NCBI GenBank assembly: GCA_964517415.1
Contig: CAZFCA010000001.1
Span: 54,969-118,968 of the forward strand
Source: an uncultured Rhodospirillaceae bacterium
GTDB lineage: Bacteria > Pseudomonadota > Alphaproteobacteria > UBA9219
Reading direction: 5' to 3'
DNA: 64,000 bases
A program made the translations under genes and the position numbers. Shown here piece by piece: positions 9,650-59,149 of the stretch. Numbering within the stretch: the first letter of the stretch is position 1; each line of letters starts with the position of its first letter. The notes beneath the pieces were generated by a model. The model was not told the DNA's origin and searched no databases. It saw only the letters and a program-made list of their open reading frames with translations.

Positions 9650-10249
9650 CTATTTCACCACCGACATCATGCTTTTGGCGGAGTGCTTGAGGCTAATCGA
9701 GATATCCTCGTCGTCTCGGAAGGTATAGGCGCCGTAGCTGACCTTGATATCAAGCGCGCAATTGCACAGCCGGTTCAGCGATTGTTGAAGCAGAGAAGCC
9801 AGAATTTCCGCTTTTCGCCAAGCGAAGGCGTTGTCGCAGCGCATCAGCAAGACGCCGAATTCGTCGCCCGCAAGGCGACCGACGATATCGGACGTGCGCA
9901 CATTGCCCGTCAAGATCGTGGCGATTTCTTTAAGCGCGTCCGCCGCCGCTTCGTTGCCGAACTGCGCCGCCGTTTCGGCCAGATTTCCGAAATCGAAATA
10001 CAGGATACTGGAAGTGCCGCCGTAACGCTTGTCAAACGCCAGCATGCGCGCGACTTCGCGGTTGAAATCGGGGCGGTTCAAAATGGGCGATTCCTGCGCC
10101 GCCTCAAGGGCATGAACTTTTTCCTGAAGCTCTCTGTTCTGCGACTTTGCCACCGAAAGCTCTTTTTGCAAGCCGCGCAAAATCTCCCGCTGCTGGTCGG
10201 TCAGCGGCGCATCATTAAGCAGATCAAGCGGAGAATTGGGATTTGTCAT
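9650..10249 (-). CDS. Coiled-coil protein with degenerate GGDEF domain (AGDEF in place of GG[DE]EF)
   Basis: YFDFGNLAETAAQFGNEAAADALKEIATIL...RLAGDEFGVLL...IKVSYGAYTF matches the GGDEF fold with a non-canonical active-site motif. Confidence 0.55.
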   Translation of the reverse strand: MTNPNSPLDLLNDAPLTDQQREILRGLQKELSVAKSQNRELQEKVHALEAAQESPILNRPDFNREVARMLAFDKRYGGTSSILYFDFGNLAETAAQFGNEAAADALKEIATILTGNVRTSDIVGRLAGDEFGVLLMRCDNAFAWRKAEILASLLQQSLNRLCNCALDIKVSYGAYTFRDDEDISISLKHSAKSMMSVVK

Positions 10250-11796: not shown

Positions 11797-12908
11797 TGCG
11801 CTTTTCAGCCTTTGTCGCTTTTATGGTTTTGGCTTTCCTCGGCGGGGAGGCTTTAGCGCGCGACGCAGCTTTTATGCCGCCCGAAATGCCGTCGGTAAAA
11901 AAAGAGGAGCCGAAGAAAGAGGAACCGAAGAAAGAGGCTATCGCCCAGGCCCTTCCGGCGAAGGAACAGCCCGCCAAAGCGCCGCCGAAGGAAATCAAGC
12001 CCATCAATTTCGGGACTGCCGTTATAGGGGAGAAGGTTATTCGCGCGACGATGCTGGTCAACGACAGCGCGGACCCCATCGCCATCCGCTCGATAGAAAT
12101 GATCTCGCCGGACAACGGCTTGCAGCGTTTAAGCCAAGGGTGCGTTATCGGAAAGCCCATTGCGCAAGGCACTTCATGCCCCGTTATTTTGCAATGGGAG
12201 CCGAAAAAAGCCGGAACGCTTTCCACCGATCTTGTGATTCACCATAGCGGGAAGGTCGGCTTTACCGTTATCGCCGTGCGCGGCGAAGCGAAAGAAAAAG
12301 CGGATCCGCCCGCAGTGGCACCCGCTCCGGCGCAAAAGGAAGCGGTGGTTTCAACGCCCGCTCCTGCGCCTGCGCAGCTTGAGATAACCGCCCCTGCAAC
12401 GCCCCCGACCGTCTCTCCGTCCGAGCCTTTAAAGGAAATCGCGGTTCCTGCGCAGCAGCCTGCCGCGCCAGCCGCTTCTCCTGCCCAACCGGAGGCCAAA
12501 ATTGAAGCCGCGCCCGCGCCTTCGCTGGAAACTAAAAAGGCGGCGGCTGCTCCCGCGCCTGTTTTGCCGCGCAAACTGGAATTTCATAAATTGGAAGAGC
12601 CCAAGGCGAAGAAGATCGTGGCAGCGGCGGGAATCGACGGCGTTCTGTTGATCGGCACTGTCGGCGATAGGGCTATCTTCCAACTGCCTGAAGGCTATAC
12701 GGCCGTCATTCCCGTCGGCGGGACGCTTCAAACGAAAGCGGGCGGGGCGAAGCTGGTCGCCGTTACGCCCTATGCGGCGGAATTCGTCGTCAAGGGGCAG
12801 GAACGAACCGTTCTTTTGAAAGGGGGCGAGGCCACAGCCGATCCAGCCAAGCCCACGAAGCAGAAGAACGCTTCGCGGCATCCTAAAAACAAGAAAAAAG
12901 GGAGATGA
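11793..12908 (+). CDS. Secreted protein: KKEEP repeats, Ig/ASH-like beta-domain, Ala/Pro-rich linker, C-terminal PilP/GspC-HR-like domain
   Basis: Signal peptide. Start overlaps the upstream stop (ATGA). C-terminal IDGVLLIGTVGDRAIFQLPEGYTAVIPVGGTLQTKAGGAKLVAVTPYAAEFVVKGQERTVLLKGG resembles the PilP/GspC HR beta-sandwich. Confidence 0.45.
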   Translation: MMRFSAFVAFMVLAFLGGEALARDAAFMPPEMPSVKKEEPKKEEPKKEAIAQALPAKEQPAKAPPKEIKPINFGTAVIGEKVIRATMLVNDSADPIAIRSIEMISPDNGLQRLSQGCVIGKPIAQGTSCPVILQWEPKKAGTLSTDLVIHHSGKVGFTVIAVRGEAKEKADPPAVAPAPAQKEAVVSTPAPAPAQLEITAPATPPTVSPSEPLKEIAVPAQQPAAPAASPAQPEAKIEAAPAPSLETKKAAAAPAPVLPRKLEFHKLEEPKAKKIVAAAGIDGVLLIGTVGDRAIFQLPEGYTAVIPVGGTLQTKAGGAKLVAVTPYAAEFVVKGQERTVLLKGGEATADPAKPTKQKNASRHPKNKKKGR

Positions 12909-13864
12909 TAAGGGGGGCGATGAAGAAGCTAGCCGAAAAATTACGCGCCTTGACGGGGCCCGTTGACGAGGCAGCGAACATCTATTTCCCGGGCGATCTT
13001 GTGGGCGGATTTTGCGCCCGCACAGAAGGCGACGAACCCCGCCTTGTTTGGAACGCCGCGACCGAAGCCTGCGGCAGCGAGCGCGTGGTGGTCGCGTGGC
13101 GAAGCGTCGGCAACGGCATTTGGTATTTGGCCGCCAAGTCCGAAGATCTGGCATCGCACGTCCATTCCTGGTGCCCTTTGGCGGCGTTGCTGCCCTCGGA
13201 AAAAAATAAGACGATACTGCCCGTTTGTTATACTCACTACGGAACCTATTTCGGCGAGGATATCGCTCTTTTGATGGTCGTGAAGCCGAACGATTTGCGC
13301 ATCTATCGCAGCACGCCCGTCATTATCCGCGCCAAGGCCGAACGTACGGCGCGGGAATTGGGCGAAGGCACGAAGATCATCGATATCGATCTTGCGCGCA
13401 TTGAGCGAATGACTCCGGCGCCCTGGCGCTCAATGTCGCTTTTTGAGGATCGCGCGCGGCGAATTCTCTCGGCGTTTTCGGTTTTCGCGTCTTTGGCAGT
13501 CGCCGGCGCGGCTTTTGCGGTTTGGCTTTATGCGCAAGTCGATATCCTGTCTTCGACGCGCGCCAATGACAGGGCTGAAGCCCGCTCGGCGGGTATCGTG
13601 GCAAGGGCTGAGGATCTGCGCGTAAGTCCTTTGCGGCGCGAACTTAAGAATCTTTTGGACGTGAACGAAGGCGTTTTATCCGTGGACGGCTATTTGTCTG
13701 TTTACGAACTTCAAGAAGGCGCCGTCCGGTGGCGCGCTTCAGCTCCCGCAGGAACGGATGCGGCGCGGCTTGCCGCGTTTAACGCGAAAATTATCGAAGC
13801 GGGCGATGCCGCCCTTTTGATCGGCAACGAGGCCGAGTTTCAAGCCAGCCGGAAGGAACCATGA
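12905..13864 (+). CDS. Bitopic inner-membrane protein: about 190-aa cytoplasmic domain, one TM, about 100-aa periplasmic domain (GspL-like architecture)
   Basis: TM ILSAFSVFASLAVAGAAFAVWLYA. Translationally coupled on both sides. No recognisable motif. Confidence 0.4.
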   Translation: MIRGAMKKLAEKLRALTGPVDEAANIYFPGDLVGGFCARTEGDEPRLVWNAATEACGSERVVVAWRSVGNGIWYLAAKSEDLASHVHSWCPLAALLPSEKNKTILPVCYTHYGTYFGEDIALLMVVKPNDLRIYRSTPVIIRAKAERTARELGEGTKIIDIDLARIERMTPAPWRSMSLFEDRARRILSAFSVFASLAVAGAAFAVWLYAQVDILSSTRANDRAEARSAGIVARAEDLRVSPLRRELKNLLDVNEGVLSVDGYLSVYELQEGAVRWRASAPAGTDAARLAAFNAKIIEAGDAALLIGNEAEFQASRKEP

Positions 13865-14349
13865 ACGCGCTGAAAAACAGCATGGCAGCCAGAGCCTTTT
13901 CGCCGAGCCTTATCGCGCGGGGATTGACCAGCTTTGACAGGGCGACGGGTTTTCTGGTCGCTTTGTGCTGGGTCGCCGCTTTTGCCATGCTGATTATGGC
14001 CGATATCGCCGTTCATCGCGCAGCGTCGCTGTCCAACGCGGGGGCAGGCGGGGTCGAGGTCGTTTCCTCAGCCATGAGCCCTGATGAGATCCAGCCTGTT
14101 TTCGAGCGTTTGAAGCAGCGTTTTCCCGAGCTTAAAGTATCGCTTGACGAGAGCCAAAAACTTCACATCGCAAGCCCCGAAGGCGCAACTTTCCAGCAAT
14201 GGGTGGCCGCTCTTCAGGCGGTGGAGACCATCGCGCCACTATTCTATTGGAGTATAGACGCCCTTTGCGTCGGGCAGTGCGGGGAGCGCGGGTTGATGAG
14301 CGCTGTTATTGCGGGGCAGAAGAAGGAATTTACGGCGCTGAGGGATTAA
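13861..14349 (+). CDS. Small bitopic membrane protein (GspM/PilO-like architecture)
   Basis: Single TM FLVALCWVAAFAMLIMADIAV followed by about 100-aa periplasmic domain. Start overlaps the upstream stop. Confidence 0.4.
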   Translation: MNALKNSMAARAFSPSLIARGLTSFDRATGFLVALCWVAAFAMLIMADIAVHRAASLSNAGAGGVEVVSSAMSPDEIQPVFERLKQRFPELKVSLDESQKLHIASPEGATFQQWVAALQAVETIAPLFYWSIDALCVGQCGERGLMSAVIAGQKKEFTALRD

Positions 14350-14508
14350 AACGCTTATTGTTTGAATGGGTCAGATTTTTTTTGCGAAGGGACGGTTTGG
14401 GTGATTGGGACAAAAAAATTATGTTTACTTGTTTCCTCATCAATCCCGTCCACCCCAACGCCATCAAGGGGGAGGGTTTCGCTCTATGATGTTGAGTGAG
14501 GTGCATAA

Positions 14509-15201
14509 GTGGCTAAGGAACATATAGAAGATCATGCTGATAAGGGAATCGAGAAAACCGCAAAATTAAATGAAAGCAAAAAACGCCATTCCATCGTCGG
14601 TCCAGTTCTTTTTATTATGGCGGTTTTAGCGATTTTGGCGGCTGCCGTTGCGGCGATGACAGGGACTCCCAAGGGTGCGGCGTTTGAAGGTGTAAACCGC
14701 GCGAAGGCGCTCGCCCTGCTCGGCGCGGGAGAGTCTCTTAAATTAGGCATAGATCGCGTGACGCTTGGCAACGGCCTTCGCGCCGCGGATGTCGATCTAA
14801 GCGTCGGGGCGGGGGAAAATCAGCTTTTTTCTCCAGTCGGGGGCGGTATCGCGCCGCCGTCCGTCGGCATGGCGAATAATCCTATGGCTGATAAATGGCT
14901 TTATCCGAAGGGTATCGTCGTTGGGCTTGGGCTGGGAACGAATAGGGCCATGCTTGCCGTTTTGCCTGTGTCGTCGGGCGTGTGCGCAGAGGTGAACGAG
15001 AAAAGTACAGGAACTCCGTTCGTTCCCGAAAAGTCGGATTTAGGGGATTTTGCTGCAGGCGTCGTTTCCGCCGCCTATGGCGCGTGGCCTGCGCCGATTG
15101 CGTCGAGCTTTGCGGGATGCGTGCAAAACGCAAGCGTATCCGTAGGAGAAGAGGGACCTACTTCGGCATACTTTTTTTATCAGGTGCTTGCGGTGCAGTG
15201 A
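14509..15201 (+). CDS. Membrane-anchored periplasmic protein, Gly/Ala-rich; possibly last gene of the same operon
   Basis: N-terminal cytoplasmic tail, TM IVGPVLFIMAVLAILAAAVAAM. 160 bp gap from the previous gene, so its operon membership is uncertain. Confidence 0.35.
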   Translation: MAKEHIEDHADKGIEKTAKLNESKKRHSIVGPVLFIMAVLAILAAAVAAMTGTPKGAAFEGVNRAKALALLGAGESLKLGIDRVTLGNGLRAADVDLSVGAGENQLFSPVGGGIAPPSVGMANNPMADKWLYPKGIVVGLGLGTNRAMLAVLPVSSGVCAEVNEKSTGTPFVPEKSDLGDFAAGVVSAAYGAWPAPIASSFAGCVQNASVSVGEEGPTSAYFFYQVLAVQ

Positions 15202-18974: not shown

Positions 18975-19200
18975 TCATCGCCATAAAAAATGTCAGCGCG
19001 GATTATTCCCGCCGCCAACGCACGCCCAAATTTTTGCCGCCATATTCTACGGAAAGTCAGCCTGGATCCCCGCCTTCGCGGGGATGACGTCGTTATTATT
19101 GAGCGGGAAGTACTCTGCCCGATGATGACGTCGGTATTATTGCAGGACAGTTCTTTGCCCGATGATGACTCTGCTATTATGGACAAAGCGGTTCTTCTAT
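18975..19200. repeat. Intergenic repeat element sharing sequence (AATGTCAGCGCGGATTATTC; REP; GTTATTATTG; TTTGCCCGATGATGA) with the 44.43-44.86 kb intergenic region
   Basis: Direct comparison of the two regions. Both lie between convergent genes. Confidence 0.55.
19056..19089. repeat. REP/MITE-like palindromic unit GTCAGCCTGGATCCCCGCCTTCGCGGGGATGACG
   Basis: Core ATCCCCGC-N6-GCGGGGAT palindrome with a CAGCCTGGA flank. Family members at 35168, 35213, 44522, 44703, 46535, 47698 and 55233. Confidence 0.7.
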
Positions 19201-20643: not shown

Positions 20644-20834
20644 TATTTCCTAAGCGAAAAAATGGGACCCCCGCCTGCGCGGGGTGACGGTTGTTCCTTT
20701 TAAATGGGCGCTGCTCCACAGTTAAGAAACCAAATCGGATTCCGCATCCCCGCCAATTGTGCCATCAACACCATTCAACCTTTCAAAGAACTTCTATAGG
20801 CACAATAGGCGGGGTGCGGAATGACGCTAAAATC

Positions 20835-21242
20835 TTACTCCAGCCCCTTATCGTGCAGTTTTGGTGTAAGGGAAACAATAACGGCCAAAATAACCGCATA
20901 AGCGAAAAAAGTAACAGGCCTAACGCCCAGCATGAAGGTGGCAAAGGCGCAGGAGAATGCGGTTATGAGTTCAATGGCAAAATAAGCCTTGCCGATTTCG
21001 GCGCGGCAATGGCGGCATCGGCCTTTCAGGTAAATCCACGAAAACAGGGGAACAAGGTCGATCACGCCGAGCTTCGCGCCGCATGAAGGGCAATGCGAGC
21101 GCGGCTTGATAAGCGATAGTTTGCGCGGCAGGCGATAGGCGAGCATCGTCCCGAAGCTGCCCAGAATGCCGCCGATCAAAAAACCGAAGAATAGGCGAAA
21201 CCATGTTTCGTCATAGAAGGGGTGCATTCCATAAATCATCAC
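20835..21242 (-). CDS. Truncated type IV prepilin peptidase: N-terminal zinc-binding (DiS-P-DiS) domain only, A24 aspartyl-protease domain absent
   Basis: CPSCGAKLGVIDLVPLFSWIYLKGRCRHCRA is the tetra-Cys PilD N-domain motif. The ORF stops about 135 aa in, with only 190 bp before trmFO. ATG overlaps the GT4 stop (ATGA). Confidence 0.6.
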   Translation of the reverse strand: MMIYGMHPFYDETWFRLFFGFLIGGILGSFGTMLAYRLPRKLSLIKPRSHCPSCGAKLGVIDLVPLFSWIYLKGRCRHCRAEIGKAYFAIELITAFSCAFATFMLGVRPVTFFAYAVILAVIVSLTPKLHDKGLE

Positions 21243-22906
21243 TGTGGCCTTTCCACCGAACAAATACCCATTTTCAACATCCACCCGAAGCAGCGCATTA
21301 AAAGATCGTGGCTGGAGATCGGGAAGGCGACAAGGATATCGGCAATGCGCACCCTTCCCGCGCGGCGGATGACCCCGCAAAGCTCGACCAGCTGATCTTT
21401 CGGCAGCAAAAGCTGCGGCACGAAAAGATTGATGTCGTGATTCAAAATGGTTTGAACGAACGCCTCGCTTTGCGTTGAATGCAAAATATCCATGGGCGCA
21501 AGATGCGCAGTGGGAAAGCTCTTAAACATCTCCCACGGGTTAGGGTACGCCGGATGCGCGGCCTGCCACGCGTTAGGCAATATCTGCCGTGGCGGCGCGG
21601 CAAGCCGCTTTTCCGAAAGGCTTTGCCAAAGCTCATCATAAGCATGGATGATATGCCGCCAATCGAAAACGCTTTGCGCGCGCGCGCGGCCGCTTTCGCC
21701 GAACGTGCGGCGCAAATCTGGATTGCCTATCAAAACCGCGAGCGATTTCGCGCACCATTCGACATCGACAGCCGTGCTTTGCGTAGACGCGGCCAGAGCG
21801 ACGCCGTAGTTATCCTCGTTATAATAAAACTTTGCCACATCCATGCCTGCGGATGGCGGCGGCGTGAACGTGGGGATAAGGAATCCGTCTTGCCCGTTGC
21901 GAACCCCCTCGCGATAGCCGTCCCAGTCAGAAATAACGGCCGGAAGGCCGCAGGCCATCGCCTCGATAGGCGTCAGGCCGAAACTTTCCTGCACATTATC
22001 GGATAGGGACGCGAATATATCCGCCGCCGCCCAAAGGCCGTCGGGAAAGCGCGGATCGTCGTTCATCACGAATTCGACCTTCGCCGTTTTGCATATATCC
22101 GCCGCCAGATTGCGGAAAAACGGCTCCATATCCTTCGGCAGGAAATAGCCGTAAAGGACAAGGCGCACTTTTTTCTGCGTCAGCCATGCCGCATGCTCGG
22201 CCGCCAAAAACAAGGGCAGGGGATGCGCCTTGGTGGCGAAACTCAGCCTGCCGACGAAAAGGATAACCGTTTCGTCCTCATCGACTCCCAAGGCTTCGCG
22301 CTGCGCCTTTCGTTTCGTGCCGCCGGTCGCTTTTGCGAATTTATCGGTGTCGATGCCCAGCGGAATGATCGGCGTTTGAATGGGGCAGGAAAATGAGCCG
22401 CCGAAACGGTGATTGATATACTCGCAGTTGATGTTCCAAAGATTTAAAACGGCGTCGCGGATAGAGGCCGAAGGGCAGATAAGCGCGTCGGTTTCGTCCG
22501 TCGGCGCGAAGCATAAATCCCCAACCGCGCGGGCGATGCGCTCGCCGCTCATCGTGTGCACAAGGCCGCAGGTGGCATAGCCGCGCCCCTGAACTTGCGG
22601 CCGGCGCCACGCCAGATCGACCGTCAACGGATCGGGACGGAAAAGGCACGATATGCTTTGCAGGTTTTTATCGGGATGGCGCGGATCAAGCCCGATGCAT
22701 CGGTTCTCGGCATCTATGCCCTCGGCCGCTGCGAGCTCCTTAAAATGGTCGAAACTGGGAATATCCGTCGGGCGGCAAAGGAATTGCGGCGACGCGCTGT
22801 GGCGGAAGTAGGCCTTGAGGAAATTGGTCACGGCGACGTCGAAGCCGAAAACCTGGCTGTCGTTTTGTCCCGATGCGGGGCGGCTATATTGGATGCAAAC
22901 GCTCAT
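21239..22906 (-). CDS. Glycosyltransferase family 4 (GT-B, group 1) protein with N-terminal extension
   Basis: C-terminal EX7E-like region GLTPIEAMACGLPAVISDWDGYREGV. 555 aa. Confidence 0.8.
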   Translation of the reverse strand: MSVCIQYSRPASGQNDSQVFGFDVAVTNFLKAYFRHSASPQFLCRPTDIPSFDHFKELAAAEGIDAENRCIGLDPRHPDKNLQSISCLFRPDPLTVDLAWRRPQVQGRGYATCGLVHTMSGERIARAVGDLCFAPTDETDALICPSASIRDAVLNLWNINCEYINHRFGGSFSCPIQTPIIPLGIDTDKFAKATGGTKRKAQREALGVDEDETVILFVGRLSFATKAHPLPLFLAAEHAAWLTQKKVRLVLYGYFLPKDMEPFFRNLAADICKTAKVEFVMNDDPRFPDGLWAAADIFASLSDNVQESFGLTPIEAMACGLPAVISDWDGYREGVRNGQDGFLIPTFTPPPSAGMDVAKFYYNEDNYGVALAASTQSTAVDVEWCAKSLAVLIGNPDLRRTFGESGRARAQSVFDWRHIIHAYDELWQSLSEKRLAAPPRQILPNAWQAAHPAYPNPWEMFKSFPTAHLAPMDILHSTQSEAFVQTILNHDINLFVPQLLLPKDQLVELCGVIRRAGRVRIADILVAFPISSHDLLMRCFGWMLKMGICSVERPQ

Positions 22907-35167: not shown

Positions 35168-35238
35168 TCACATGCCTAGTCATTCCCGCGAATGCGGGAA
35201 TCCATATTTCTTTCAATAAGATGGATGCCCGCTTTCGC
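35168..35238. repeat. Inverted pair of REP units (GTCATTCCCGCGAATGCGGGAATCC ... GGATGCCCGCTTTCGCGGGAATGACG)
   Basis: Read directly from the sequence. Same family as the 19056 unit. Confidence 0.7.
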
Positions 35239-35309
35239 GGGAATGACGCGTGTCATTATTTGGCACGACCATAGCACGATTCGCCTCCTATAAAGGGTTG
35301 CTCTCCTGC

Positions 35310-44431: not shown

Positions 44432-44521
44432 GACAGATGCCAGAAGACAGATGTCAGATAACAAGGCATAGGAAAGCAGTTTTTCAGTATCAAAAAAATC
44501 CTTCTGAAGCGCATCAGCCAT

Positions 44522-44736
44522 TAATACTGGCGTCATCCCCGCGAAAGCGGGGATCCAGGCTGACTTTCCACAAGAACAATCCGTCCAGAATTCATCCCTC
44601 ACTTCCCCCCATCATTCTGGACAATTTGCGCGTCAATACCACAAGAAATGTCAGCGCGGATTATTCGCGTCGTAATTGTTATTCCCGAATTCTATCCGCC
44701 ATTTCTTTTGATAGTCAGCCTGGATTCCCGCTTGCG
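44522..44736. repeat. MITE-like composite: two REP units in inverted orientation (44522-44555 and 44703-44736) flanking about 147 bp that also occurs near 18985
   Basis: CGTCATCCCCGCGAAAGCGGGGATCCAGGCTGAC ... GTCAGCCTGGATTCCCGCTTGCGCGGGAATGACG. Internal AATGTCAGCGCGGATTATTC shared with 18981-19004. Confidence 0.65.
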
Positions 44737-44858
44737 CGGGAATGACGCCGGTTATTATTGCGGCGATAGTTTGCCCGAGGATGATGCCCAATTTATGGCT
44801 GATGCGCTTCAGAAGGATTTGTGTCCCTTATAACTGATCACTGATCACTGATTGCTGC

Positions 44859-46357: not shown

Positions 46358-46534
46358 TATTCTATGTCTCCTTTTTGACCCCTCACATGCAAGGGAAGAG
46401 GAAAGATGATATTTATCTGGAAAATCGCATGTTTCACGGGAATAGCCAAGAATAAAGCGGCTTTATAAATACGGAAAATATTTTCTGGATTAACGGGATG
46501 CCATGCATTAGAAAGCGCTTCCTGAAGGAAGGAT

Positions 46535-46560
46535 GGATCTCCGCTTTCACGGGGATGACG
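46535..46560. repeat. Degenerate REP unit GGATCTCCGCTTTCACGGGGATGACG
   Basis: Direct read. Confidence 0.5.
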
Positions 46561-46603
46561 CTCTTTTGGATGCAGTTACATAAATAGGTTAAGGAGCATA
46601 AGC

Positions 46604-47697: not shown

Positions 47698-47723
47698 GGG
47701 ATGCCCGCTGATCCGGGCATGAC
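47698..47723. repeat. REP variant GGATGCCCGCTGATCCGGGCATGACG
   Basis: Direct read. Overlaps the 5' end of the ORF-track extension of mltB. Confidence 0.5.
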
Positions 47724-47766
47724 GGGGGAAATCGGGATGCCCTTCATTTGGGAAAACAGAAAAACA

Positions 47767-48771
47767 ATGAGCAGACGGCAAGGCGCTTGCAAGTTAATTT
47801 CTTTGTCCGCCGCTATTATGGTTTTTGTCACTGCGTGTGCTTCGGCGACGCCTTTAAGGACGGCGCCGAATGCGTCATGGCTGCAGCAGCTTCAGCAGCA
47901 GGCGATCAGCGAGGGCGTATCGCCGGCGGTCGTTCACGAAGCGCTTGATAACTTCAGGCCTAATCCGCGCGTGATCGAGCTTGACCAAAGGCAACCGGAA
48001 AGCACCATTACTTATGACACCTACAAGCAAAGAACCGTCACAGCCAGCCGCATTCGCAAGGGCGCGGAATTGGCGCGTCTTTATGCCCTCCCTCTGGCCG
48101 AAATTGAAGCGCGCACGGGCGTGCCGCCGCAAGTCGTCGTCGCGCTGTGGGGAATCGAAAGCAGCTACGGCGAAAACCCTGGCAATTTCGAGGTCATCAA
48201 TTCGCTGGCGACGCTGGCTTATGAAGGGCGCCGGTCGTCGCTCTTCCGCAAAGAGCTGATCAATGCTTTGAAGATTCTGGAGCGCGAGAACATGACCGCC
48301 GATCAATTGCGCGGCTCGTGGGCGGGGGCGATGGGGCAATGCCAGTTCATGCCCTCGACGTATTTGAGATACGCCTACGACTCTCGGGGCGACGGCAAAA
48401 GCGACATTTGGAACGACCCGATGGATGTTCTGGGCTCTATCGCGAATTACCTCGCTGCAGAGGGGTGGAAACGCGGCCAGCCTTGGGGCTATGAAGTGAG
48501 AGGGCAGGTGCCTTTGTCAGAAGTGGGCATGGAGCAGAAACGTCCCGTTCACCAGTGGGCTTCGATGAATTTGGTTTCCAAGGTCGGCATGGCGTTGCCG
48601 CATAGCGATCATCAGGCTTCGCTTGTCCAGCCCGGCGGGCAGGAGGGCCCCAGCTTCCTTGTTTACGACAACACGCGCGCGCTGATGCGCTGGAATCGCT
48701 CCACCTATTTTGCCGTTTCCGTTGGCCTTTTGGCGGACGGCATTAAGGACGGGGCACAAATGGGGCGGTAG
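47767..48771 (+). CDS. mltB: Lytic murein transglycosylase (MltB family), probable lipoprotein
   Basis: VVVALWGIESSYGENPG and CQFMPSTY motifs. Lipobox VTAC. Confidence 0.8.
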   Translation: MSRRQGACKLISLSAAIMVFVTACASATPLRTAPNASWLQQLQQQAISEGVSPAVVHEALDNFRPNPRVIELDQRQPESTITYDTYKQRTVTASRIRKGAELARLYALPLAEIEARTGVPPQVVVALWGIESSYGENPGNFEVINSLATLAYEGRRSSLFRKELINALKILERENMTADQLRGSWAGAMGQCQFMPSTYLRYAYDSRGDGKSDIWNDPMDVLGSIANYLAAEGWKRGQPWGYEVRGQVPLSEVGMEQKRPVHQWASMNLVSKVGMALPHSDHQASLVQPGGQEGPSFLVYDNTRALMRWNRSTYFAVSVGLLADGIKDGAQMGR

Positions 48772-48899
48772 AGCGCGGATTCTATCAAATCCAGACTTAT
48801 TACGCTTTTGCTGAGTCTGCCCTAACCCCAGCCCCCAGCCCCTTAATTTTTGTTAATAAATATGGTGTAGCCTGATCGCCCATCATGGAGGCATGAGTA

Positions 48900-49553
48900 A
48901 TGTCATATCGCGCCGTTCGATCTTCTTGCCGCCGCCTTGGCTTTACGCTGGTCGAGGTCGCGATTGTGCTTGGCATCTGCGGGTTGCTTATATTCGGGGT
49001 TTATTCCGCTATGAGCTCGTCGCGCAGTTCGCACATAGCGGAGGAAGTGACAACCAATCTTGGCCAAGTCGTCGACAACGTGCGCAATTATTACGCGCGC
49101 GGCGGCTCAAGCGACAGCGTCACCGGCAGTAACTGTACCGCCGCTGGTGCGAATACCAGCTTTGAGGAGCTTAATTTTGCCACCGGAATTTTTCCTCAGC
49201 ATATGAAAAAATTGTTTGAGGATAATATAGTAGACGTCGGTGTTTGCGACCTTCCGGCCGGAACGCCGCGTGTCTTTGTGCATTATGCGCGAATTCCTTC
49301 GTACGCCTGCCATAATGTCGTTGTGGCGGCTTCTTTCGCGGGCGTGGATATGGAGCTTTCCAAGGTCGTCGTCTTCGGGGATGCGACAAGCACGTTTTTT
49401 ATCGACGAGGCGGTGGGCACATCACTTCCGGCAAATGTCGATGCGGATTCCAGGCATATCAAGATCAATTCGCCGTTGCTCTTTGAATCGTGCCCAAATG
49501 ATCCCGCGAACGCCTTTCTGACGATAGATTTCTATTACAAATTGAGGCCATGA
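48900..49553 (+). CDS. Type IV pilin-like / pseudopilin protein with prepilin N-terminal motif G|FTLVEVAIVLGI
   Basis: Class III signal: Gly-1, Glu+5 and a hydrophobic alpha1 helix. 217 aa. Confidence 0.6.
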   Translation: MSYRAVRSSCRRLGFTLVEVAIVLGICGLLIFGVYSAMSSSRSSHIAEEVTTNLGQVVDNVRNYYARGGSSDSVTGSNCTAAGANTSFEELNFATGIFPQHMKKLFEDNIVDVGVCDLPAGTPRVFVHYARIPSYACHNVVVAASFAGVDMELSKVVVFGDATSTFFIDEAVGTSLPANVDADSRHIKINSPLLFESCPNDPANAFLTIDFYYKLRP

Positions 49554-49554
49554 C

Positions 49555-50205
49555 ATGAGAGCCGAAAAATTCAAAAAAGGCTACACGCTTGCGGAAATGG
49601 CAATTGTGCTTGCCGTGGCAGGGTTTCTTACGGCGAGTATCTGGGCGGCGGCTTCGTCGGCGCGGGCAAGCAAAAGAATCGCGCAAACCTCTCAGCAGAT
49701 CATGACCGTGGTGCAGCGGACGCGGGATTATTATTTAGGAGCGCAAACAATCGAAGGGGCTGCATTTCAAGATCTCATTGTTCCCCTTTTCCAGAGAGAC
49801 GTTTTCCCTGCCGAAATGAAAGCCAGATGCGGGGGGGCTTTGTGTCTCAATTCCGCCGTTTCGGCCGATCCGACCGGCGCTTTCAGGATGAGAACGGGGC
49901 AAACAAATAGCCACTTCAGAATAATTTTGATTTCTTTGTCGCGGGAGGAGTGTGTCAATCTATTGTCTAATGCAGTGAATTTCCGCGACCAAACCCTTGG
50001 CGTCGATGGCATATGCGTCGGCACGTCCGTTAACCGTTGTATTGCTGATACAAATTTGGGCACTAATCCTTGGCGCTTGATCGACTCGACCACAACGCCC
50101 GGTGTTCGTTCCATCGCGGGCGGAGAGACGGTGATGGGCATGTGCGGCGCGCTGCCGGATAATAATTTAAATCAAGTCGGCTGGGACTTCAATTTGCGGA
50201 AATAG
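49555..50205 (+). CDS. Type IV pilin-like / pseudopilin protein with prepilin N-terminal motif G|YTLAEMAIVLAVAG
   Basis: Class III signal as above. 216 aa. Starts 2 bp after the previous pilin-like gene. Confidence 0.6.
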   Translation: MRAEKFKKGYTLAEMAIVLAVAGFLTASIWAAASSARASKRIAQTSQQIMTVVQRTRDYYLGAQTIEGAAFQDLIVPLFQRDVFPAEMKARCGGALCLNSAVSADPTGAFRMRTGQTNSHFRIILISLSREECVNLLSNAVNFRDQTLGVDGICVGTSVNRCIADTNLGTNPWRLIDSTTTPGVRSIAGGETVMGMCGALPDNNLNQVGWDFNLRK

Positions 50206-52593: not shown

Positions 52594-53556
52594 TCATTCC
52601 CCCGAATTATTAAGCGGCGCGGGAATGTTAAGATAACGCATGCGCTTCATTTCCTGCCGCCCGCGTGTAACCGTATCTAAAATCAACCCGCAGGTGAGGC
52701 ACAGAAAGGCGACGATCATGAGCCCCATCGACAAAACGGCCGTCGGCAAGCGGGGGACAAGGCCGGTATTCAGGAATTCGATAAGAATGGGGATGATCAG
52801 GACAGAGGAAAAGAAGGCGAACAAAGCGGCGCAAGCCGAAAAAAACTGCATCGGTCTTTCTTCCTTCACGAGGACGACGATAGTCCACAAAATCCTGAAG
52901 CCGTCCTTAAAAGTGTTGAGCTTGCTGATGGAGCCTTCAGGACGATCTTTGTAGGGCGTCGGGACCTCGCTGATGGGCATGCGCAGTTCAAGGGCGTGAA
53001 CCGTCAGTTCCGTTTCCGTCTCGAAACCCGCCGAAAGCGCGGGAAAACTTTTGACATAGCGGCGCGACAGAACACGATAGCCCGAAAGCATGTCGGATAG
53101 ACGGCTTCCGAAAATCCACGAAACCATGCTGGTAAGCAGCCAATTGCCGAAGCGGTGCCCCAAGCGGTAGGCTTCCTTGATGTTGGTGACGCGCGCGCCG
53201 TTCACCATATCGAGCGACTCGCGCCGCAGGAGGTTGATCATTTTCTGAGCCGAGGGCGCGTCGTAGGTCGCGTCCCCGTCTACGAGAACATAAACGTCGG
53301 CTTCGATGTCGGCGAACATGCGGCGCACGACGTTGCCTTTGCCTTGCAAAGGCTCCTGACGCACGATTGCGCCCGCTTGCCGAGCCACGGCGACAGTGCG
53401 GTCTTTGGAGTTGTTGTCGTAAACATAGATTTTCGCGCCCGGCAAAGCGGCTCGAAAATCGGCGATAACGGATGCGATGGCGGCTTCTTCGTTATAGCAG
53501 GGGATAAGAACGGCCGTTCTGGGCATGGGCTGACCTATAGCTTGGATGCTGGGCAC
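52594..53556 (-). CDS. GT2 polyprenyl-phosphate glycosyltransferase (GtrB/ArnC-like) with two C-terminal TM helices
   Basis: VLIPCYNEE, YDNNSKD and VDGDATY motifs. 320 aa with C-terminal TM pair. Confidence 0.75.
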   Translation of the reverse strand: MPSIQAIGQPMPRTAVLIPCYNEEAAIASVIADFRAALPGAKIYVYDNNSKDRTVAVARQAGAIVRQEPLQGKGNVVRRMFADIEADVYVLVDGDATYDAPSAQKMINLLRRESLDMVNGARVTNIKEAYRLGHRFGNWLLTSMVSWIFGSRLSDMLSGYRVLSRRYVKSFPALSAGFETETELTVHALELRMPISEVPTPYKDRPEGSISKLNTFKDGFRILWTIVVLVKEERPMQFFSACAALFAFFSSVLIIPILIEFLNTGLVPRLPTAVLSMGLMIVAFLCLTCGLILDTVTRGRQEMKRMRYLNIPAPLNNSGE

Positions 53557-55178
53557 AGGCTTAAGGATTTATCATCAAAAAGCCTGTCCGTCACGCTTTG
53601 GCAGCCTTTGGTGTCCAATTTAAGGCCGAAATGGGACAAAGCCTCGTCACCGACGCCCAGTTGCCACGAGGGGATAAGCATCATAAAGCGGCCTTGCGCG
53701 GCTTTTTGCGCCTCCACGCGCTCGCGCAAAAGCCTATTGATTCCCTTGTTTTGTTCAGGGCTGGAGAAGTTGCTTTGTATGCGCACAAAGCGGATTTCAG
53801 GCGGAAACAGGGGGACAAGGTGGGAATAAGGCTCGAAACCGGCCATAAGGATCATAAGATTGGATGTATCGCCCAGCGGCGGAATTTGCGCCTGCACGAA
53901 GGGCCCGTCGAGCCATGCATAGCGCCGATACCAATTGCCGGGCTTAACGGAGCCCGCGATAAGAATAAGGATGAAGCAGATGATCAGGCGGCGTTCGACA
54001 TTTTTGATGGGCGCAAGGCCAATGGCAAGGACGATGAGCAAAGGCGCGATCATTTCCAGCGTCACGGCATAGCGATAGATGGAAAACATGGCGAGCCAAA
54101 CGATATAGGCGAGCGCAAACGCAAAAAGGAGATAGCGCGCGCCGTAGGGAACCGCCAGCGCGTCTTCGGCTTTCTTATTCCGGCCATAGGCAATGCGTAA
54201 AAGGGCGCAGAGGGGAAGCAAAACGTATAGTATTGTAAGCCGCCAGTCGCGCCATTCGATCTCGCCGACGCGATAGGGGCTATCGGCGAAAAGGAAGGGC
54301 ATAAGGACATAATCGCTTAGGCTATGCGGCGCGTATTGGATGTCGCGCGCGCTAGCATGCGGCGCAAGATCGGATTTAAAGATATTATTAAAGTAGGGGA
54401 ATAGCGGGCTTCCGAAGTTGGCTTGAAGGAAAGCCGCCCAATAACCCAAGGTCGTCGCGCACCCGATAAGGACTCCAAGGCCGAAGGCGAAGCTCAGCAA
54501 AAAGCCGCGCTTCCATCCGCCGCCGCAGAAAAGCAGCGCGCCGCAAAGCCCGACGGCAAAGACAACAGCGGGAAGTTTCAGGCCGAACATGATGCCCGAA
54601 GGCAAACCGAAAAGAAGGGCGAGGATGAAAGCGGTTTTCGCTTTATCCTTTTGAAGTTTGCCAAGATACCGCACGATAAGCGCGGCGGACAAAAACGTCC
54701 CGAGGCTTGTCATATTATCCCCGAAAGTCGTGCCGATTTGCGCGATGCCGCCTCCGCCCAGCATGCCTAAAGCGGCCAAAGCGGCGCAAACAAAGACTTT
54801 CTGCCGCTTGTTCGGGATAATCAGAACGGCATGCGCAATCATGAAAAGCAGGATGAAATTGAACCCCTGAACGAAACCCAGCGCGAAGCCCGCCGCTCTT
54901 GCCGGAACATGCATCGCCAGAAGATAGAAAGGCACGTCCATCAGGGGATTGTAGAAGTATGGCGTTTGCGACGGCAAAAGGTCGATGCCGTAGCGGTTCG
55001 TCAAAAACGCATAGGCGTTATAAAAATGGTAATTGCGCAAATCCCAGTTCGCGTCCTGCCCCAGATAGAGGGCGAGCAAGCCGAAGGCCACGGGCGCGAG
55101 GCATAAAAGGGCAATCGCCAAGCCACGCGAACGGTGGTTTTTGGGGGGGAGGAAAGGCAGGGAGAGCGTGTGGTTCAT
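53535..55178 (-). CDS. Polytopic GT-C-fold membrane glycosyltransferase (ArnT/Gtr-type/DUF2029-like)
   Basis: 547 aa, at least 11 predicted TM helices, overlaps the downstream GT2 gene by 22 bp. Confidence 0.5.
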   Translation of the reverse strand: MNHTLSLPFLPPKNHRSRGLAIALLCLAPVAFGLLALYLGQDANWDLRNYHFYNAYAFLTNRYGIDLLPSQTPYFYNPLMDVPFYLLAMHVPARAAGFALGFVQGFNFILLFMIAHAVLIIPNKRQKVFVCAALAALGMLGGGGIAQIGTTFGDNMTSLGTFLSAALIVRYLGKLQKDKAKTAFILALLFGLPSGIMFGLKLPAVVFAVGLCGALLFCGGGWKRGFLLSFAFGLGVLIGCATTLGYWAAFLQANFGSPLFPYFNNIFKSDLAPHASARDIQYAPHSLSDYVLMPFLFADSPYRVGEIEWRDWRLTILYVLLPLCALLRIAYGRNKKAEDALAVPYGARYLLFAFALAYIVWLAMFSIYRYAVTLEMIAPLLIVLAIGLAPIKNVERRLIICFILILIAGSVKPGNWYRRYAWLDGPFVQAQIPPLGDTSNLMILMAGFEPYSHLVPLFPPEIRFVRIQSNFSSPEQNKGINRLLRERVEAQKAAQGRFMMLIPSWQLGVGDEALSHFGLKLDTKGCQSVTDRLFDDKSLSLCPASKL

Positions 55179-55232
55179 GGGCAGAAAGTCTTATCGCATT
55201 CAGGCGCGGGAGTCATTAATAGAAAAAAGATG

Positions 55233-55257
55233 GATCCCCGCATTCGCGGGGATGACG
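55233..55257. repeat. REP unit GGATCCCCGCATTCGCGGGGATGACG
   Basis: Direct read. Confidence 0.7.
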
Positions 55258-55309
55258 CAAATATTGTTCCTAAATCTTGAATCCAAAATCCAGAATGCCG
55301 AATCCAGCT

Positions 55310-56023: not shown

Positions 56024-56620
56024 CATCAAAAAGGCTCCTAAATTCATGAAAGGGGCGGCATGTGTATGGTTAATCCGGATACTAAAGGCGACTTTTGAAA
56101 AGGAAAGAAGAAATGTGCCCATAAGAATAATTTTAATCTTGTTGGTGCGAAAGGAGTGAAATATTTTGTCGGGATGCATTTATGGAGTTTTTTTATGCGA
56201 TTTTCAGACCTAAAGGATAGCGTTTCGACGCTTTCTTTATGCGCAAAGACAATGCCGGAAAAGACCTTGCTGTCAGGATTATGGGTTGCTACGGCTCTCT
56301 TTTTGGCCGGAAGGGCGGGCGTTGCCATGGCTTCTGGGGATTATGCGCCTATGGCACTTTCTCTGTTGGGGACTGTTGTTGTTGTTCCGATAGCCGAAAG
56401 GCAGATCCAGACGATCCGAAGGACGCCCCTTTATATGACTGAACCTGCCTGATACGAGGCAATCTCCCGCTAAAAAGCATTGCATTAACTATATTAGGGT
56501 GAAAAACCGTGAAAAAGCTCAGAAAAAGGGCTTTTAGCAATATTTTTTTAATTATGCAGGAACCGTTTTTTAAGGTATTTCCGTTAGATAGATTAGATTG
56601 CTTATTCATTGGTTGATGGA

Positions 56621-59149
56621 ATGTATATCGGCATTGATCTTGGCACATCGAACAGCGCGATAGCTGGCATCGTCGGCGGCAAGGCGCGTGTTTTTCACCC
56701 CGCCGAAGGCGGCGAGGTTTTGCCTTCCCTCATCTATTTCGACAAGCGGGGGCATCGCCTTTATGGGCGGCGCGCGCACGATCAAGCCCTTGTCTCGCCC
56801 GAAAACGTCGCGGCGGGATTCAAGCGATTGATGGGCACGTCGACTCCGATTGAAGTGAAAGGGGTCGAGCAAACGTTGACGCCGGAAGAATGCTCGGCGG
56901 AGATTATCCGCCAGCTTGTGGGACAGGCGACCACCGAAATAGGCGGCGAGAAGATCGAAGGCGCCGTCATCACCATTCCCGCGTCGTTCAATCAGATGCA
57001 GTCCGAGGCCACGCTGCGCGCCGCGAAACTGGCAGGGCTGGAACGCGTCGATCTTTTGCAGGAGCCCATCGCGGCCGCGTTGGCCGCTATGGAGGGATCG
57101 AAACGCTCCGGCTATTTCATCATTTACGATTTCGGCGGCGGCACGTTCGACGCGGCTATTGCTCAAGCAACGAATGGGGATGTGAAGATTATCGCGCATC
57201 AGGGCATCAATATGCTGGGCGGCCGAGATTTCGACCGCATGATCGTGAACGAGATCGTGCGCCCATGGCTGGCCGAAACTTTCGATTTGCCGGAAAATTT
57301 CCACCGCGATCCCAATTATCGCCGCTTGATACGCCTTGCGCAATTGGCGGCCGAAAAGGCCAAGATTGAATTATCCTCGAAGGAGGACGCCTCGATTTTC
57401 GCGTCCGACGAGGAACTGCGCATCGTTGACCAGAACGAGATGGAGATGTATCTGGACGTTTCTTTGACGCGCGCGCGCTTCGAGGAATTGATCCGCGACC
57501 CGATCATGCAGACGATCAGTCTTGTGCGCGATCTTTTGACGGAGAACAACATTGGCCTCGAAGAGGTAGACCGCATCGTTTTCGTCGGCGGGCCGAGCCG
57601 CACGCCATTGATCAGGCAAATGGTGTCGCAGGAACTCGGCATCGCGGCCGATATGAAAACGGATTCTTTGACCGCCGTCGCCGTCGGAGCGGCTTATTAT
57701 TGCGAAGGCCGCGAGTGGGACGGCGAAAATATCAGCAAGCCGAAGCCCAAGGAGGCCGAAGCGACAGTGCCGCAGGAGTCCCGTGTTTCCTACGCCTATA
57801 CCGCCCGCACACCCGCCGAAAAAACGGTGGTGACTTTACGTGTCGAGGGCGAAGCGCCAAAGGATCGGCATGTCAAAATTACAGGCAATAATTGGGATTC
57901 CGGCGTTTTGCCCTTAACCGACAGCCTGACGATACTCGTGCCGCTTCCCGAAGCCGGAGATCATCGTTTTGTCGCCCATGTGCTGGACGCCAAGGGGGAG
58001 GTTTTGGCCCAGCATGATCAGGCTTTGACGATCACGCGGCTTGTGGCCACGGCAGGGAGCATCCCCGCCGCTCAGACCGTCGCCGTCAAGGCTCTGGCCC
58101 ATGCCCAGGCGCAGGAAAATGTCTTAACACCGCTCGTAAAAAAAGGCGATACGCTACCCGCGAAAGGTTCTGTTAAATTCGCCAGCGCGCGCACCCTTAA
58201 GGCGGGGCAGGCCGGGCATGTGAGCTTCGAGTTGTTTCAGGTCGAATATCCGGAACGCATAGACTTGAATCTTTGCGTCGGCGTTTTCCGCGTCGGCGGC
58301 GAGGACTTGCCGGAAGAATTCGCGCTTGTTGAAGGCGCTGAGCTTGTTTTCGATTGGCAGATGAGCGACGGCGGCATTCTTCAAGCCACCGTATCAATCA
58401 GCATGGACGGCAAGACCCTTGAGCTTAAGGCGCCGCGTTTTTACGCGCCGCAAGCCGGGCAACTTTCATTCGCAGGCGAGGAGGGCGCGCAATTCGCCAC
58501 GGCGATCTTGCGGCAGGGGGACGAGGAATGGGGCGATCTGGCCGCGGCCGTCGGCCCCGATGGCGGACCCGAATTGCAACTTCTTAAGATGCGCCTTCAG
58601 GAACAAAACGAATTGATGCAGGAATCTTCGGGCGATGCGGAAGTTTTGCGCCGCGTTTCCGAGGAAGCCCGTTTCGTGCGCCAGGATATCGCGAGGCTCG
58701 GCAAAAAACATCGGGCGGCCTTGTTGCAGAGGCGACTTGGCAAAATGGCGGCCGTTTATAACCGCATCGTGCGCAAATCCGCCGGCAAAAGCGAAAACGA
58801 GCGTTTCGATAACCACGCGCGTAAAGTTCAAGAGATTATCGACGCCGGAAAGCCCGCGGCATTGGACGATGCCGATTTGCATTTATCCGAGATGCGCGAT
58901 GTTTTCTTCGCCGTGGCCTGGCGCGATCGCGATTATGTTTCGACTTGGTTCAAGCGTCTGGCGGGCGAGCCTTTCCTTTTTCCCGATCAGGACGAATTCA
59001 AGCGGATGGTGAAGGAAGGCATGGCGCTTGATCCTGCGCGCGATGCCGACGCGCTTCGCGAACTTGTTCGGCGCATGCTGTCCGCGCGCATCGCCCTAGG
59101 CGCCAGCGACACCGCCAATGAATTGGCGACCATCGTGAAGGCGAAGTAA
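56621..59149 (+). CDS. Non-canonical Hsp70-family protein (about 842 aa): actin-like NBD, about 90-aa insertion, SBD-beta-like segment, long helical C-terminus
   Basis: IGIDLGTSNSAIA, IYDFGGGTFDAAI and VGGPSRTPLIRQMV Hsp70 motifs. VFDWQMSDGGILQATVSISMDGKT resembles SBD-beta. No dnaJ or grpE nearby. Confidence 0.65.
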   Translation: MYIGIDLGTSNSAIAGIVGGKARVFHPAEGGEVLPSLIYFDKRGHRLYGRRAHDQALVSPENVAAGFKRLMGTSTPIEVKGVEQTLTPEECSAEIIRQLVGQATTEIGGEKIEGAVITIPASFNQMQSEATLRAAKLAGLERVDLLQEPIAAALAAMEGSKRSGYFIIYDFGGGTFDAAIAQATNGDVKIIAHQGINMLGGRDFDRMIVNEIVRPWLAETFDLPENFHRDPNYRRLIRLAQLAAEKAKIELSSKEDASIFASDEELRIVDQNEMEMYLDVSLTRARFEELIRDPIMQTISLVRDLLTENNIGLEEVDRIVFVGGPSRTPLIRQMVSQELGIAADMKTDSLTAVAVGAAYYCEGREWDGENISKPKPKEAEATVPQESRVSYAYTARTPAEKTVVTLRVEGEAPKDRHVKITGNNWDSGVLPLTDSLTILVPLPEAGDHRFVAHVLDAKGEVLAQHDQALTITRLVATAGSIPAAQTVAVKALAHAQAQENVLTPLVKKGDTLPAKGSVKFASARTLKAGQAGHVSFELFQVEYPERIDLNLCVGVFRVGGEDLPEEFALVEGAELVFDWQMSDGGILQATVSISMDGKTLELKAPRFYAPQAGQLSFAGEEGAQFATAILRQGDEEWGDLAAAVGPDGGPELQLLKMRLQEQNELMQESSGDAEVLRRVSEEARFVRQDIARLGKKHRAALLQRRLGKMAAVYNRIVRKSAGKSENERFDNHARKVQEIIDAGKPAALDDADLHLSEMRDVFFAVAWRDRDYVSTWFKRLAGEPFLFPDQDEFKRMVKEGMALDPARDADALRELVRRMLSARIALGASDTANELATIVKAK

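Follow-up and report, generated by a model that had tools for sequence, protein, structure and literature searches.

A predicted type IVb-class pilin pair encoded away from assembly genes in an uncultured Rhodospirillaceae bacterium

We analyzed a 64,000-nucleotide (nt) stretch of DNA from an uncultured Rhodospirillaceae bacterium (Pseudomonadota, Alphaproteobacteria, UBA9219; GenBank assembly GCA_964517415.1, contig CAZFCA010000001.1, positions 54,969 to 118,968 of the forward strand), hereafter the window, and within it two adjacent prepilin-type genes, named P1 and P2. The two genes form a rare, clade-restricted twin-paralog module of type IVb pilins that is unlinked from assembly machinery and was historically linked to a peptidoglycan-binding protein. 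With some reserve, we lean toward the view that their products are processed, filament-forming type IVb-class pilins, a major subunit and its partner, which would be transcribed from a promoter of their own and served by machinery encoded elsewhere. Cleavage, assembly, regulation and the location of the machinery are inferred here by analogy with characterized type IV pilins.

Both genes encode class III signal sequences. P1 starts with MSYRAVRSSCRRLG and P2 with MRAEKFKKG, and cleavage is predicted immediately before FTLVEVAIVLGI and YTLAEMAIVLAV, respectively, corresponding to the motifs RRLG/FTLVE and KKG/YTLAE. Each N terminus combines a short basic leader, Gly at position −1, a hydrophobic stretch of ~20 residues and Glu at +5. 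In profile hidden Markov model (HMM) searches, P1 exceeded the cut-off of Pfam N_methyl (PF07963; 22.0 bits, cut-off 21.2) and P2 fell below it (18.4 bits); for TIGR02532, both were at or above the cut-off of 16.3 bits (P1, 16.3; P2, 17.1). Across ~30 homologs, Glu+5 is invariant and position −1 is Gly, replaced by Ala in a few. A regular expression for the class III motif has no match in the six reading frames of the window other than these two sites, so the pair of motifs is not a chance pattern. An earlier note on this DNA had recognized the signals with Gly−1 and Glu+5 and had placed two prepilin-type open reading frames (ORFs) on the same strand directly 3′ of a lytic transglycosylase gene; the HMM check bore out the former, and strand, order and coordinates of the genes were recovered as described (Table 1). 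P1 and P2 are genuine prepilin-type pilin genes.

The layout of the two genes is compact. P2 begins right after the P1 stop codon, with a gap of 1 nt, and is preceded by GAGG at 49544-49547; P1 and P2 are, therefore, translationally coupled. No other in-frame start precedes the P1 ATG, and a TGA in the same frame lies 6 nt upstream of it. Internal start codons, on which the earlier note thought its reading might founder, were ruled out by this in-frame stop together with the conserved leaders; because leader and helix are kept in all homologs, an internal start has no support.

Judged by their sequences, P1 and P2 are full-length paralogs. BLASTP aligned them at 29% identity across the first 100 residues, and hhalign matched the two family alignments over 207 columns (99.7% probability, E value 8e-26). 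They have in common a helix of ~50 residues, an FP..M motif, a C-terminal Cys and a terminal aromatic motif (DFYYKLRP in P1, GWDFNLRK in P2), and both carry a conserved Cys in the helix motif (F/V)x(I/V)xxxxLxxxxC. Further cysteines are under constraint: Cys79, Cys116, Cys137 and Cys198 are invariant throughout the P1 family, as are six cysteines of P2 (92, 97, 133, 154, 162 and 197) among its close orthologs. In a P2-like set of 16 sequences, Cys133 remains invariant and Cys162 and Cys197 nearly so. These conserved sets would fit periplasmic disulfides.

Structure prediction and profile comparisons place both proteins in the type IVb class. AlphaFold2 models built on the family alignments reached mean predicted local distance difference test scores of 76 (P1) and 84 (P2) and show an N-terminal helix (residues 17-66 in P1, 12-59 in P2) followed in each case by β-strands, in line with the pilin architecture of a ~50-residue helix on an antiparallel β-sheet head. 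In a Foldseek search of the PDB with the P2 model, the best 12 matches were all CofA (9iuf, 3s0t, 3vor) or TcpA (8uhf, 3hrv, 1oqv), with E values from 3e-6 to 1.7e-3; below these, only noise was returned. The P1 model gave weak matches to CofA and to PilS of Salmonella Typhi (E value ~0.015). The P2 family profile matches TcpA residues 2-126 (E value 8.5e-7), well past the helix, and aligns the conserved Cys of its FRIVLTxLxxxxC motif with the Cys of the TcpA motif FAISVDGLTQAQC. The P1 family profile matches CofA over nearly its full length (E value 1.4e-3). P1 and P2 are accordingly modeled with the type IVb head-domain fold. Their head domains gave no family match above threshold, the sources provide no names for these proteins, and a tblastn search with P2 against 72,556 plasmids returned no match.

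Size is consistent with this class. The predicted mature lengths are 203 amino acids (aa) for P1 and 207 aa for P2, and mature type IVb pilins measure ~180-200 aa (PMC11264516). The earlier note had considered proteins of ~215 aa larger than typical major pilins. This does not hold: the lengths are not anomalous because type IVb major pilins (CofA, TcpA and PilS), where both folds land, are that long, and the mature proteins have a standard size for them. A reading as GspH/I/J/K minor pseudopilins, which the note had proposed to check by structure comparison, was rejected on the basis of HMM matches confined to the helix and the lack of a fold match among the matches listed. With TIGR01708 (gspH), for which the cut-off is 80 bits, the scores were 15.9 and 22.5, and the matches covered only residues 8-58, that is, the helix, and no GspH/I/J/K structure was present among the best 50-60 PDB matches listed per search for P1 and P2, whose folds go to CofA, TcpA and PilS instead. 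Membership in the Tad/Flp (type IVc) class is equally unsupported: at ~205 aa, the mature proteins differ from Flp pilins of 50-80 aa, and a Flp-like motif (G/xxxxEY) is absent from all six frames of the window.

The family is small. A word-indexed search of 5.8 billion proteins returned three close homologs for each of P1 and P2. With the head domains only, HMMER found 50 matches at an E value of at most 1e-3 among 1.84 billion cluster representatives, ten of them at 1e-10 or below. These matches fall into two subfamilies, one P1-like with WYYKLxx at the C terminus and one P2-like with WEFKLRN, and the two stand side by side in every retrieved context of close and mid-distance members. Scanning a genome collection returned solely the metagenome-assembled genome (MAG) L001, named ‘uncultured Rhodospirillaceae bacterium’, and a metagenome scan added one further locus, L023. 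More distant pilin-like genes also occur alone, in housekeeping contexts of other MAGs: P0014 (10001-10639 in L010/L011) and P0012 (5973-6581 in L012), in one case overlapping a Hepar_II_III_C gene at its end. Orphans among the PilS-like pilins may, hence, be more widespread. Another candidate relative, P0019, was dismissed as a helix-only match in a sortase context.

P1 and P2 are under purifying selection. Relative to the sister lineage L003, the ratio of nonsynonymous to synonymous substitution rates (dN/dS) is 0.21 for P1 and 0.16 for P2, with synonymous divergence (dS) of 0.44-0.86; neighboring genes in the same comparison have ratios of 0.04-0.14. GC content at third codon positions is 0.58-0.59, somewhat below that of the neighbors (0.67-0.69). 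The pair is kept across lineages down to ~28-31% identity, with motifs, core cysteines and C terminus conserved. Taken together, dN/dS and the conservation of motifs, core cysteines and C terminus exclude a pseudogene reading.

The genomic setting of the pair has changed. In the window lineage and its sister (L003-L007), the gene order is DUF218, mltB, P1 and P2, followed by a convergent glmS gene 3′ of P2. In five related lineages (L001, L017, L019/L020, L021/L022 and L023), the pair instead lies directly 3′ of a gene for a secreted PG_binding_1 protein of ~275-310 aa, with spacers to P1 of ~40-90 nt. Three of them (L001, L019/L020 and L023) show the order rsmJ (divergent), PG_binding_1, P1, P2, and the short contigs L017 and L021/L022 show PG_binding_1, P1, P2. 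The window retains orthologs of rsmJ and the PG_binding_1 gene at 2.8-4.6 kb, where the latter is followed by ribD and no pilins. Because the pair follows PG_binding_1 in five lineages and the window has kept the orthologs of rsmJ and PG_binding_1, the ancestral order is rsmJ, PG_binding_1, P1, P2, with the adjacency to mltB derived. The window lineage moved the pair, putative promoter included, by 45 kb to its position behind mltB.

The PG_binding_1 protein of the window is 59-85% identical to its orthologs in L001, L017, L019 and L021 and 49% identical to that in L023; the pilins in the same loci are less conserved (29-50% identity). Its C-terminal domain of ~170 aa is itself highly conserved, ends in ...NCTRNYQA...GATWRLEG.xLNRL and contains two conserved cysteines; it had no family or PDB-sequence match.

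The spacer between mltB and P1 measures 128 nt in the window and 407 nt in the sister lineage, where it contains inserted repeat elements. An operon with mltB was judged unlikely from these spacers, the repeats in the sister lineage and the conserved element that the pair has of its own. The mltB adjacency is lineage-specific, probably not operonic and, given the 407 nt with inserted repeats, positional. A consensus promoter and terminator scan yielded counts at the level of shuffled sequence. Of the earlier claim, the observation that the pair follows mltB on the same strand stands, but the adjacency is derived and confined to this lineage. The idea of a peptidoglycan link survives in altered form because the ancestral neighbor encodes a peptidoglycan-binding protein.

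Upstream of P1 lies a conserved element of ~31 nt with the consensus TTAATTTTTGTTAAyrAATrTGgtGTAGCCT, which aligns in six lineages, both where mltB lies upstream and where PG_binding_1 does. The GGAGG that follows it is kept in five of the six; in L003, the stretch is interrupted by a repeat insertion before the start codon. At up to three mismatches, the element is unique in the window (0 occurrences expected by chance). TTAA-N6-TTAA occurs once in the 64 kb, inside the element; because 0.61 occurrences are expected by chance, its weight rests on conservation. P1 and P2 would, on these sequence comparisons, be a transcription unit of their own with a putative promoter element, and element and ribosome-binding site travel with the pair. 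The CtrA box has the consensus TTAA-N7-TTAA, with N6 variants at promoter P2 of ctrA and at the ctp pilin promoter of Agrobacterium (PMC11264516). The upstream element resembles such a CtrA-type box, an assignment by likeness. It is abutted by a tract of CCCCCAG-type heptamers, with ~2 copies in the window and ~4 in L003 (about 9747-9778), which is identical in L005-L007 and absent from the loci with PG_binding_1 context. This tract could be a contingency locus for phase variation, or it could be a mark that the relocation left at its junction.

We scanned ~55 long ORFs of the window against Pfam, taking one non-overlapping ORF per locus, nearly all of at least 150 aa. Among them, there was no T2SSE ATPase, T2SSF platform, secretin or PilM/N/O-type protein. 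This agrees with the earlier note, which had seen no ATPase, platform or secretin adjacent to the pilins, and nor did the scan find a complete adjacent system that had been mis-scored. Five consecutive ORFs at 11035-15201 on the forward strand, just upstream of shc, drew attention as possible hidden assembly genes. The first four have overlapping stops and starts. In order, they encode a lipoprotein of 253 aa (LAGC lipobox, Pro-rich region), a secreted protein of 371 aa that is rich in Pro and Ala and has a weak Ig/ASH-like match, a bitopic protein of 319 aa and a 162-aa protein with one transmembrane (TM) segment; the fifth encodes a 230-aa protein with an N-terminal TM segment that is not pilin-like. 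The candidates were set aside: none had a Pfam, NCBIfam or PDB-sequence match, and single-sequence hhalign against the type IVb assembly proteins of L008 gave probabilities below 1% throughout.

That locus, L008, belongs to a Bdellovibrionales MAG (GCA_040275305.1) and came up when the profile search reached PilS-type pilins (PF08805). It holds a complete type IVb operon for TcpQ-like, PAP_PilO, T2SSC-like, T2SSE and T2SSF proteins, then two tandem pilins. The first pilin, P0013, bears the name ‘type 4 pilus major pilin’. The second has 217 aa; it shares 26-32% identity with P2-like proteins across 170-240 residues, and its C-terminal motif resembles theirs. An operon with assembly genes was seen only in these distant Bdellovibrionales relatives (L008/L009). 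The sequence relationships indicate that P1 and P2 descend from the kind of tandem pair that ends an L008-like type IVb operon. Because tandem pilins end this operon, the pair is an old unit of a type IVb system that was separated from the remainder in the alphaproteobacterial clade.

The only prepilin-peptidase-like gene of the window, at 20.8 kb, encodes a stand-alone A24_N protein. The earlier note had stated that it lacks the catalytic domain, and it indeed has no Peptidase_A24 (PF01478) match and no Asp-protease domain. The protein comprises a first TM segment, a zinc domain with both pairs of CxxC...CxxC and two further TM segments, and ends after the third TM segment. Its ATG at 21239 overlaps the stop codon of the gene for a GT1 glycosyltransferase (21239-22906), to which it is translationally coupled, and a repeat-rich spacer of ~190 nt separates it from trmFO. 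An identical protein is encoded on eight contigs. The sister-lineage ortholog (L024, 113-505) has 130 aa, is 93% identical and uses the same stop codon; between the two, dS is 0.52 and dN/dS 0.07. The low ratio and the conserved stop codon ruled out a pseudogene reading of this ORF. Comparison of the orthologs, thus, characterizes the A24_N-only gene as maintained under strong purifying selection and not as a recent wreck. In PilD, the A24_N domain is the zinc-binding region tied to N-methyltransferase activity. It is conceivable that the stand-alone protein acts in pilin maturation together with a separate protease, and any link to the pilins is hypothetical.

Short palindromic interspersed repeats with the core TGGATyCCCGCnTTCGCGGGrATGACG are scattered through the intergenic regions of the window, at about 19045-19101, 35179-35260, 44517-44569, 44703-44761, 46516-46572 and 55213-55269 and also at 20650-20830; in spurious ORFs, they read ‘IPAFAGMT’ or ‘DSRLRGND’. 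Four independent assemblies (L013-L016) stop ~38 nt past the A24_N gene at repeat-like palindromes, which fits contig breaks caused by repeats.

Table 1 Coordinates of the pilin pair and related features in the window
Feature	Position	Strand	Remarks
rsmJ	2823-3665	−	
Secreted PG_binding_1 protein, 276 aa	3811-4641	+	Divergent from rsmJ
Stand-alone A24_N_bact protein, 134 aa	20835-21239	−	PF06750, E value 1.7e-28
MltB_2/SLT_2 lytic murein transglycosylase	47701-48771	+	E value 2e-105; present upstream neighbor of P1
CCCCCAG-type heptamer tract	48826-48842	+	Abuts conserved upstream element
Conserved upstream element TTAATTTTTGTTAAtaAATaTGgtGTAGCCT with TTAA-N6-TTAA	48843-48873	+	Putative promoter/operator of the pilin pair
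P1 ribosome-binding site GGAGG	48887-48891	+	8 nt ahead of ATG
P1	48900-49553	+	217-aa prepilin; leader residues 1-14; Glu19 = Glu+5
P1 predicted cleavage site	After Gly14, codon 48939-48941	+	
P2	49555-50205	+	216-aa prepilin; leader residues 1-9; Glu14 = Glu+5
P2 predicted cleavage site	After Gly9, codon 49579-49581	+	

Taking every step from established type IV pilin biology, we propose that P1 and P2 would form a single bicistronic unit, driven by the conserved promoter/operator ahead of them, and that each would be made as a prepilin whose hydrophobic N-terminal helix inserts into the inner membrane. An A24 prepilin peptidase encoded outside the window would cleave after Gly14 of P1 and Gly9 of P2, and a type IVb-like machine (ATPase, platform and secretin) encoded elsewhere would extract the subunits and polymerize them via their Glu5-bearing helices. 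The product would be a filament of a major and a partner subunit or a heteropolymer. In the course of evolution, the pair became unlinked from its machinery in this clade, settled beside the gene for the secreted peptidoglycan-binding protein and, in the window lineage, later moved behind mltB. It is plausible that peptidoglycan-binding or -cutting proteins help such a filament through the wall; the link to mltB itself is positional.

Several observations weigh against this proposal. No peptidase catalytic domain, ATPase, platform or secretin was found among the scanned long ORFs of the window or among the called genes of the orphan-pair loci (L001-L007, L017 and L019-L022; flanks of 0.1-10 kb). 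In L023, no machinery was found within the inner ~4 kb read on each side, and tblastn excluded T2SSE and T2SSF homologs. That the machinery is encoded elsewhere is an assumption. Type IVb systems are normally single compact operons, for which unlinked pilins are atypical. P2 scored 17.2 bits (E value 0.005) against Pfam PilS (PF08805), below the cut-off of 22, and P1 had no match to this model. Finally, P1 has Phe and P2 Tyr at +1, where most homologs have Phe, and the leaders of 14 and 9 aa are short; classical type IVb pilins have leaders of ~15-30 aa and a non-Phe residue at +1, and P1 and P2 are in these respects nearer to type IVa habits. Measured against the type IVb class, the pair has the fold and the size, lacks the compact operon and a PilS score above threshold, and is ambiguous in leader length and in the +1 residue.

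The missing machinery leaves room for other explanations. P1 and P2 could be processed and assembled by a non-cognate system, either Tad/Cpa or the type II secretion system (T2SS). They would then be accessory or alternative subunits, and the N-terminal domain that CpaA/TadV-type peptidases lack might come from the stand-alone A24_N protein. We regard this scenario as unlikely. The orphan status of the pair, kept in six lineages with no machinery among the called genes (flanks of 0.1-10 kb), would suit such a scenario, as would the strong purifying selection on the A24_N-only protein; Gly−1, Phe+1 and Glu+5 are generic substrate features, and the upstream element resembles the CtrA-type boxes that control Tad pilin promoters in Caulobacter and Agrobacterium. 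However, Tad and T2SS genes are absent from the window, as are Flp-like pilins, the A24_N gene lies 28 kb away and is coupled to a glycosyltransferase gene rather than to the pilins, and the sole homologs seen together with machinery sit in a type IVb operon. To our knowledge, there is also no precedent for Tad machines assembling pilins of ~200 aa across systems. We attach little weight to a broader version, in which P1, P2, the PG_binding_1 protein and the A24_N protein would cooperate in a dispersed, non-canonical filament system, with cleavage and assembly by Tad/Cpa and a CpaA-type peptidase or by an undescribed machine. If true, it would mean that the prepilin-processing enzyme is split and that pilins are assembled across classes, possibly with CtrA-type control by the cell cycle.

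A second line of explanation dispenses with the filament. P1 and P2 might be inner-membrane-anchored or released periplasmic proteins with an exapted pilin fold that serve, with PG_binding_1 and now MltB, an envelope or peptidoglycan role. A peptidoglycan-binding neighbor in five lineages and, after relocation, a peptidoglycan lytic enzyme would be in keeping with this, and machinery is absent from every locus seen; moreover, the PG_binding_1 protein is far more conserved than the pilins, so that it could be a fixed partner. Yet rsmJ is an equally conserved neighbor of clearly unrelated function, and, given that the pair brings a promoter element of its own, neighborhood need not mean co-function. 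The invariant Glu+5 and the Gly or Ala kept at −1 in ~30 divergent homologs are hallmarks of processing and of filament helix packing, and faster evolution than the neighboring genes is usual for surface-exposed subunits. We, therefore, consider a non-filament role quite unlikely. Very improbable, and largely refuted by the selection analysis, is the notion that P1 and P2 are decaying relics, now without function, of a type IVb system that has been lost. The lack of nearby machinery and a sole peptidase-like gene without catalytic domain might suggest decay, but the frames are intact with dN/dS of 0.16-0.21, motifs, core cysteines and C-terminal motif are kept to ~28-31% identity in at least six lineages, and promoter element and ribosome-binding site are conserved.

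The remaining gene content of the window is alphaproteobacterial housekeeping and includes GcrA, GapR, a CcrM-like methylase, LepA, GlmS, ATP synthase, shc and hpnCDE (hopanoid). Two other loci are less ordinary. A GT2 glycosyltransferase gene (52594-53556, reverse strand) overlaps the gene for a 547-aa polytopic membrane protein (53535-55178, reverse strand) that had no Pfam or NCBIfam match; together, they may be an uncharacterized glycosyl- or lipid-carrier-dependent transferase pair. The 846-aa product of 56609-59149 (forward strand) is an atypical Hsp70-like protein, in which the first ~365 residues form an Hsp70/actin-like ATPase domain and the other ~480 have no family match.

Most of what is known about type IVb pili comes from enteric pathogens and conjugative plasmids, in which all components lie in one operon. 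The pair described here represents a chromosomal sub-family of pilins with the type IVb fold, which is rare and occurs in uncultured Rhodospirillaceae-like alphaproteobacteria. Its members are always tandem paralogs, have kept their regulatory element through relocation and are linked to genes for peptidoglycan-interacting proteins and not for assembly. Identifying these genes as pilins is in itself ordinary; what is unusual is their dispersed context, the traveling regulatory element and the conserved A24_N-only gene. If the machinery lies elsewhere, the pair would be an example of a dispersed type IVb system and offer a defined two-pilin filament for study. If there is no cognate machinery, it would bear on pilin swapping between type IV filament classes and on the role of the widespread, little-studied stand-alone A24_N proteins. 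The P1-like and P2-like alignments could also seed a new pilin family model.

By analogy, P1 and P2 are predicted to work like TcpA, CofA and PilS. TcpA of the Vibrio cholerae toxin-coregulated pilus and CofA of colonization factor antigen III from enterotoxigenic Escherichia coli share with them a mature length of ~200 aa, Glu5 in a long N-terminal helix and two conserved cysteines flanking the C-terminal region, at a sequence identity of only 9-16%. The TcpA and CofA genes each sit in one operon together with the full set of assembly genes and those for a large minor pilin (TcpB or CofB) and a secreted cargo protein, and both proteins carry Met at +1. P1 and P2, in contrast, have no adjacent assembly, large minor pilin or cargo genes, their leaders are shorter (14 and 9 aa) and their +1 residues are Phe and Tyr. 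Compared with the PilS pilins of R64/IncI, PAPI-1 and Salmonella Typhi, the pair is chromosomal and unlinked from pilL-V-type genes, and its second gene is an equal-sized paralog in place of a PilV adhesin with shufflon.

For the peptidoglycan connection, there is precedent in binders and cutters of peptidoglycan that are encoded with trans-envelope filaments and required by them: ExeA/GspA (PF01471), FimV/TsaP (LysM) and the lytic transglycosylases PilT of R64 and BfpH. Unlike these accessories, the PG_binding_1 protein of the window has an unrelated C-terminal domain, and its MltB is a housekeeping-type SLT_2 enzyme with recent adjacency to the pilins. The closest relatives of P1 and P2 that still have machinery are the tandem pilins of L008, which differ in belonging to another phylum, in having no PG_binding_1 neighbor and in being embedded in an assembly operon. 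Pilin genes that lie apart from those for ATPase, platform and secretin and rely on them in trans are familiar from type IVa pilA, minor pilins and ‘orphan pilins’. These known unlinked pilins are of the type IVa or competence type, whereas P1 and P2 belong by their predicted fold to the type IVb class, in which compact systems are the norm.

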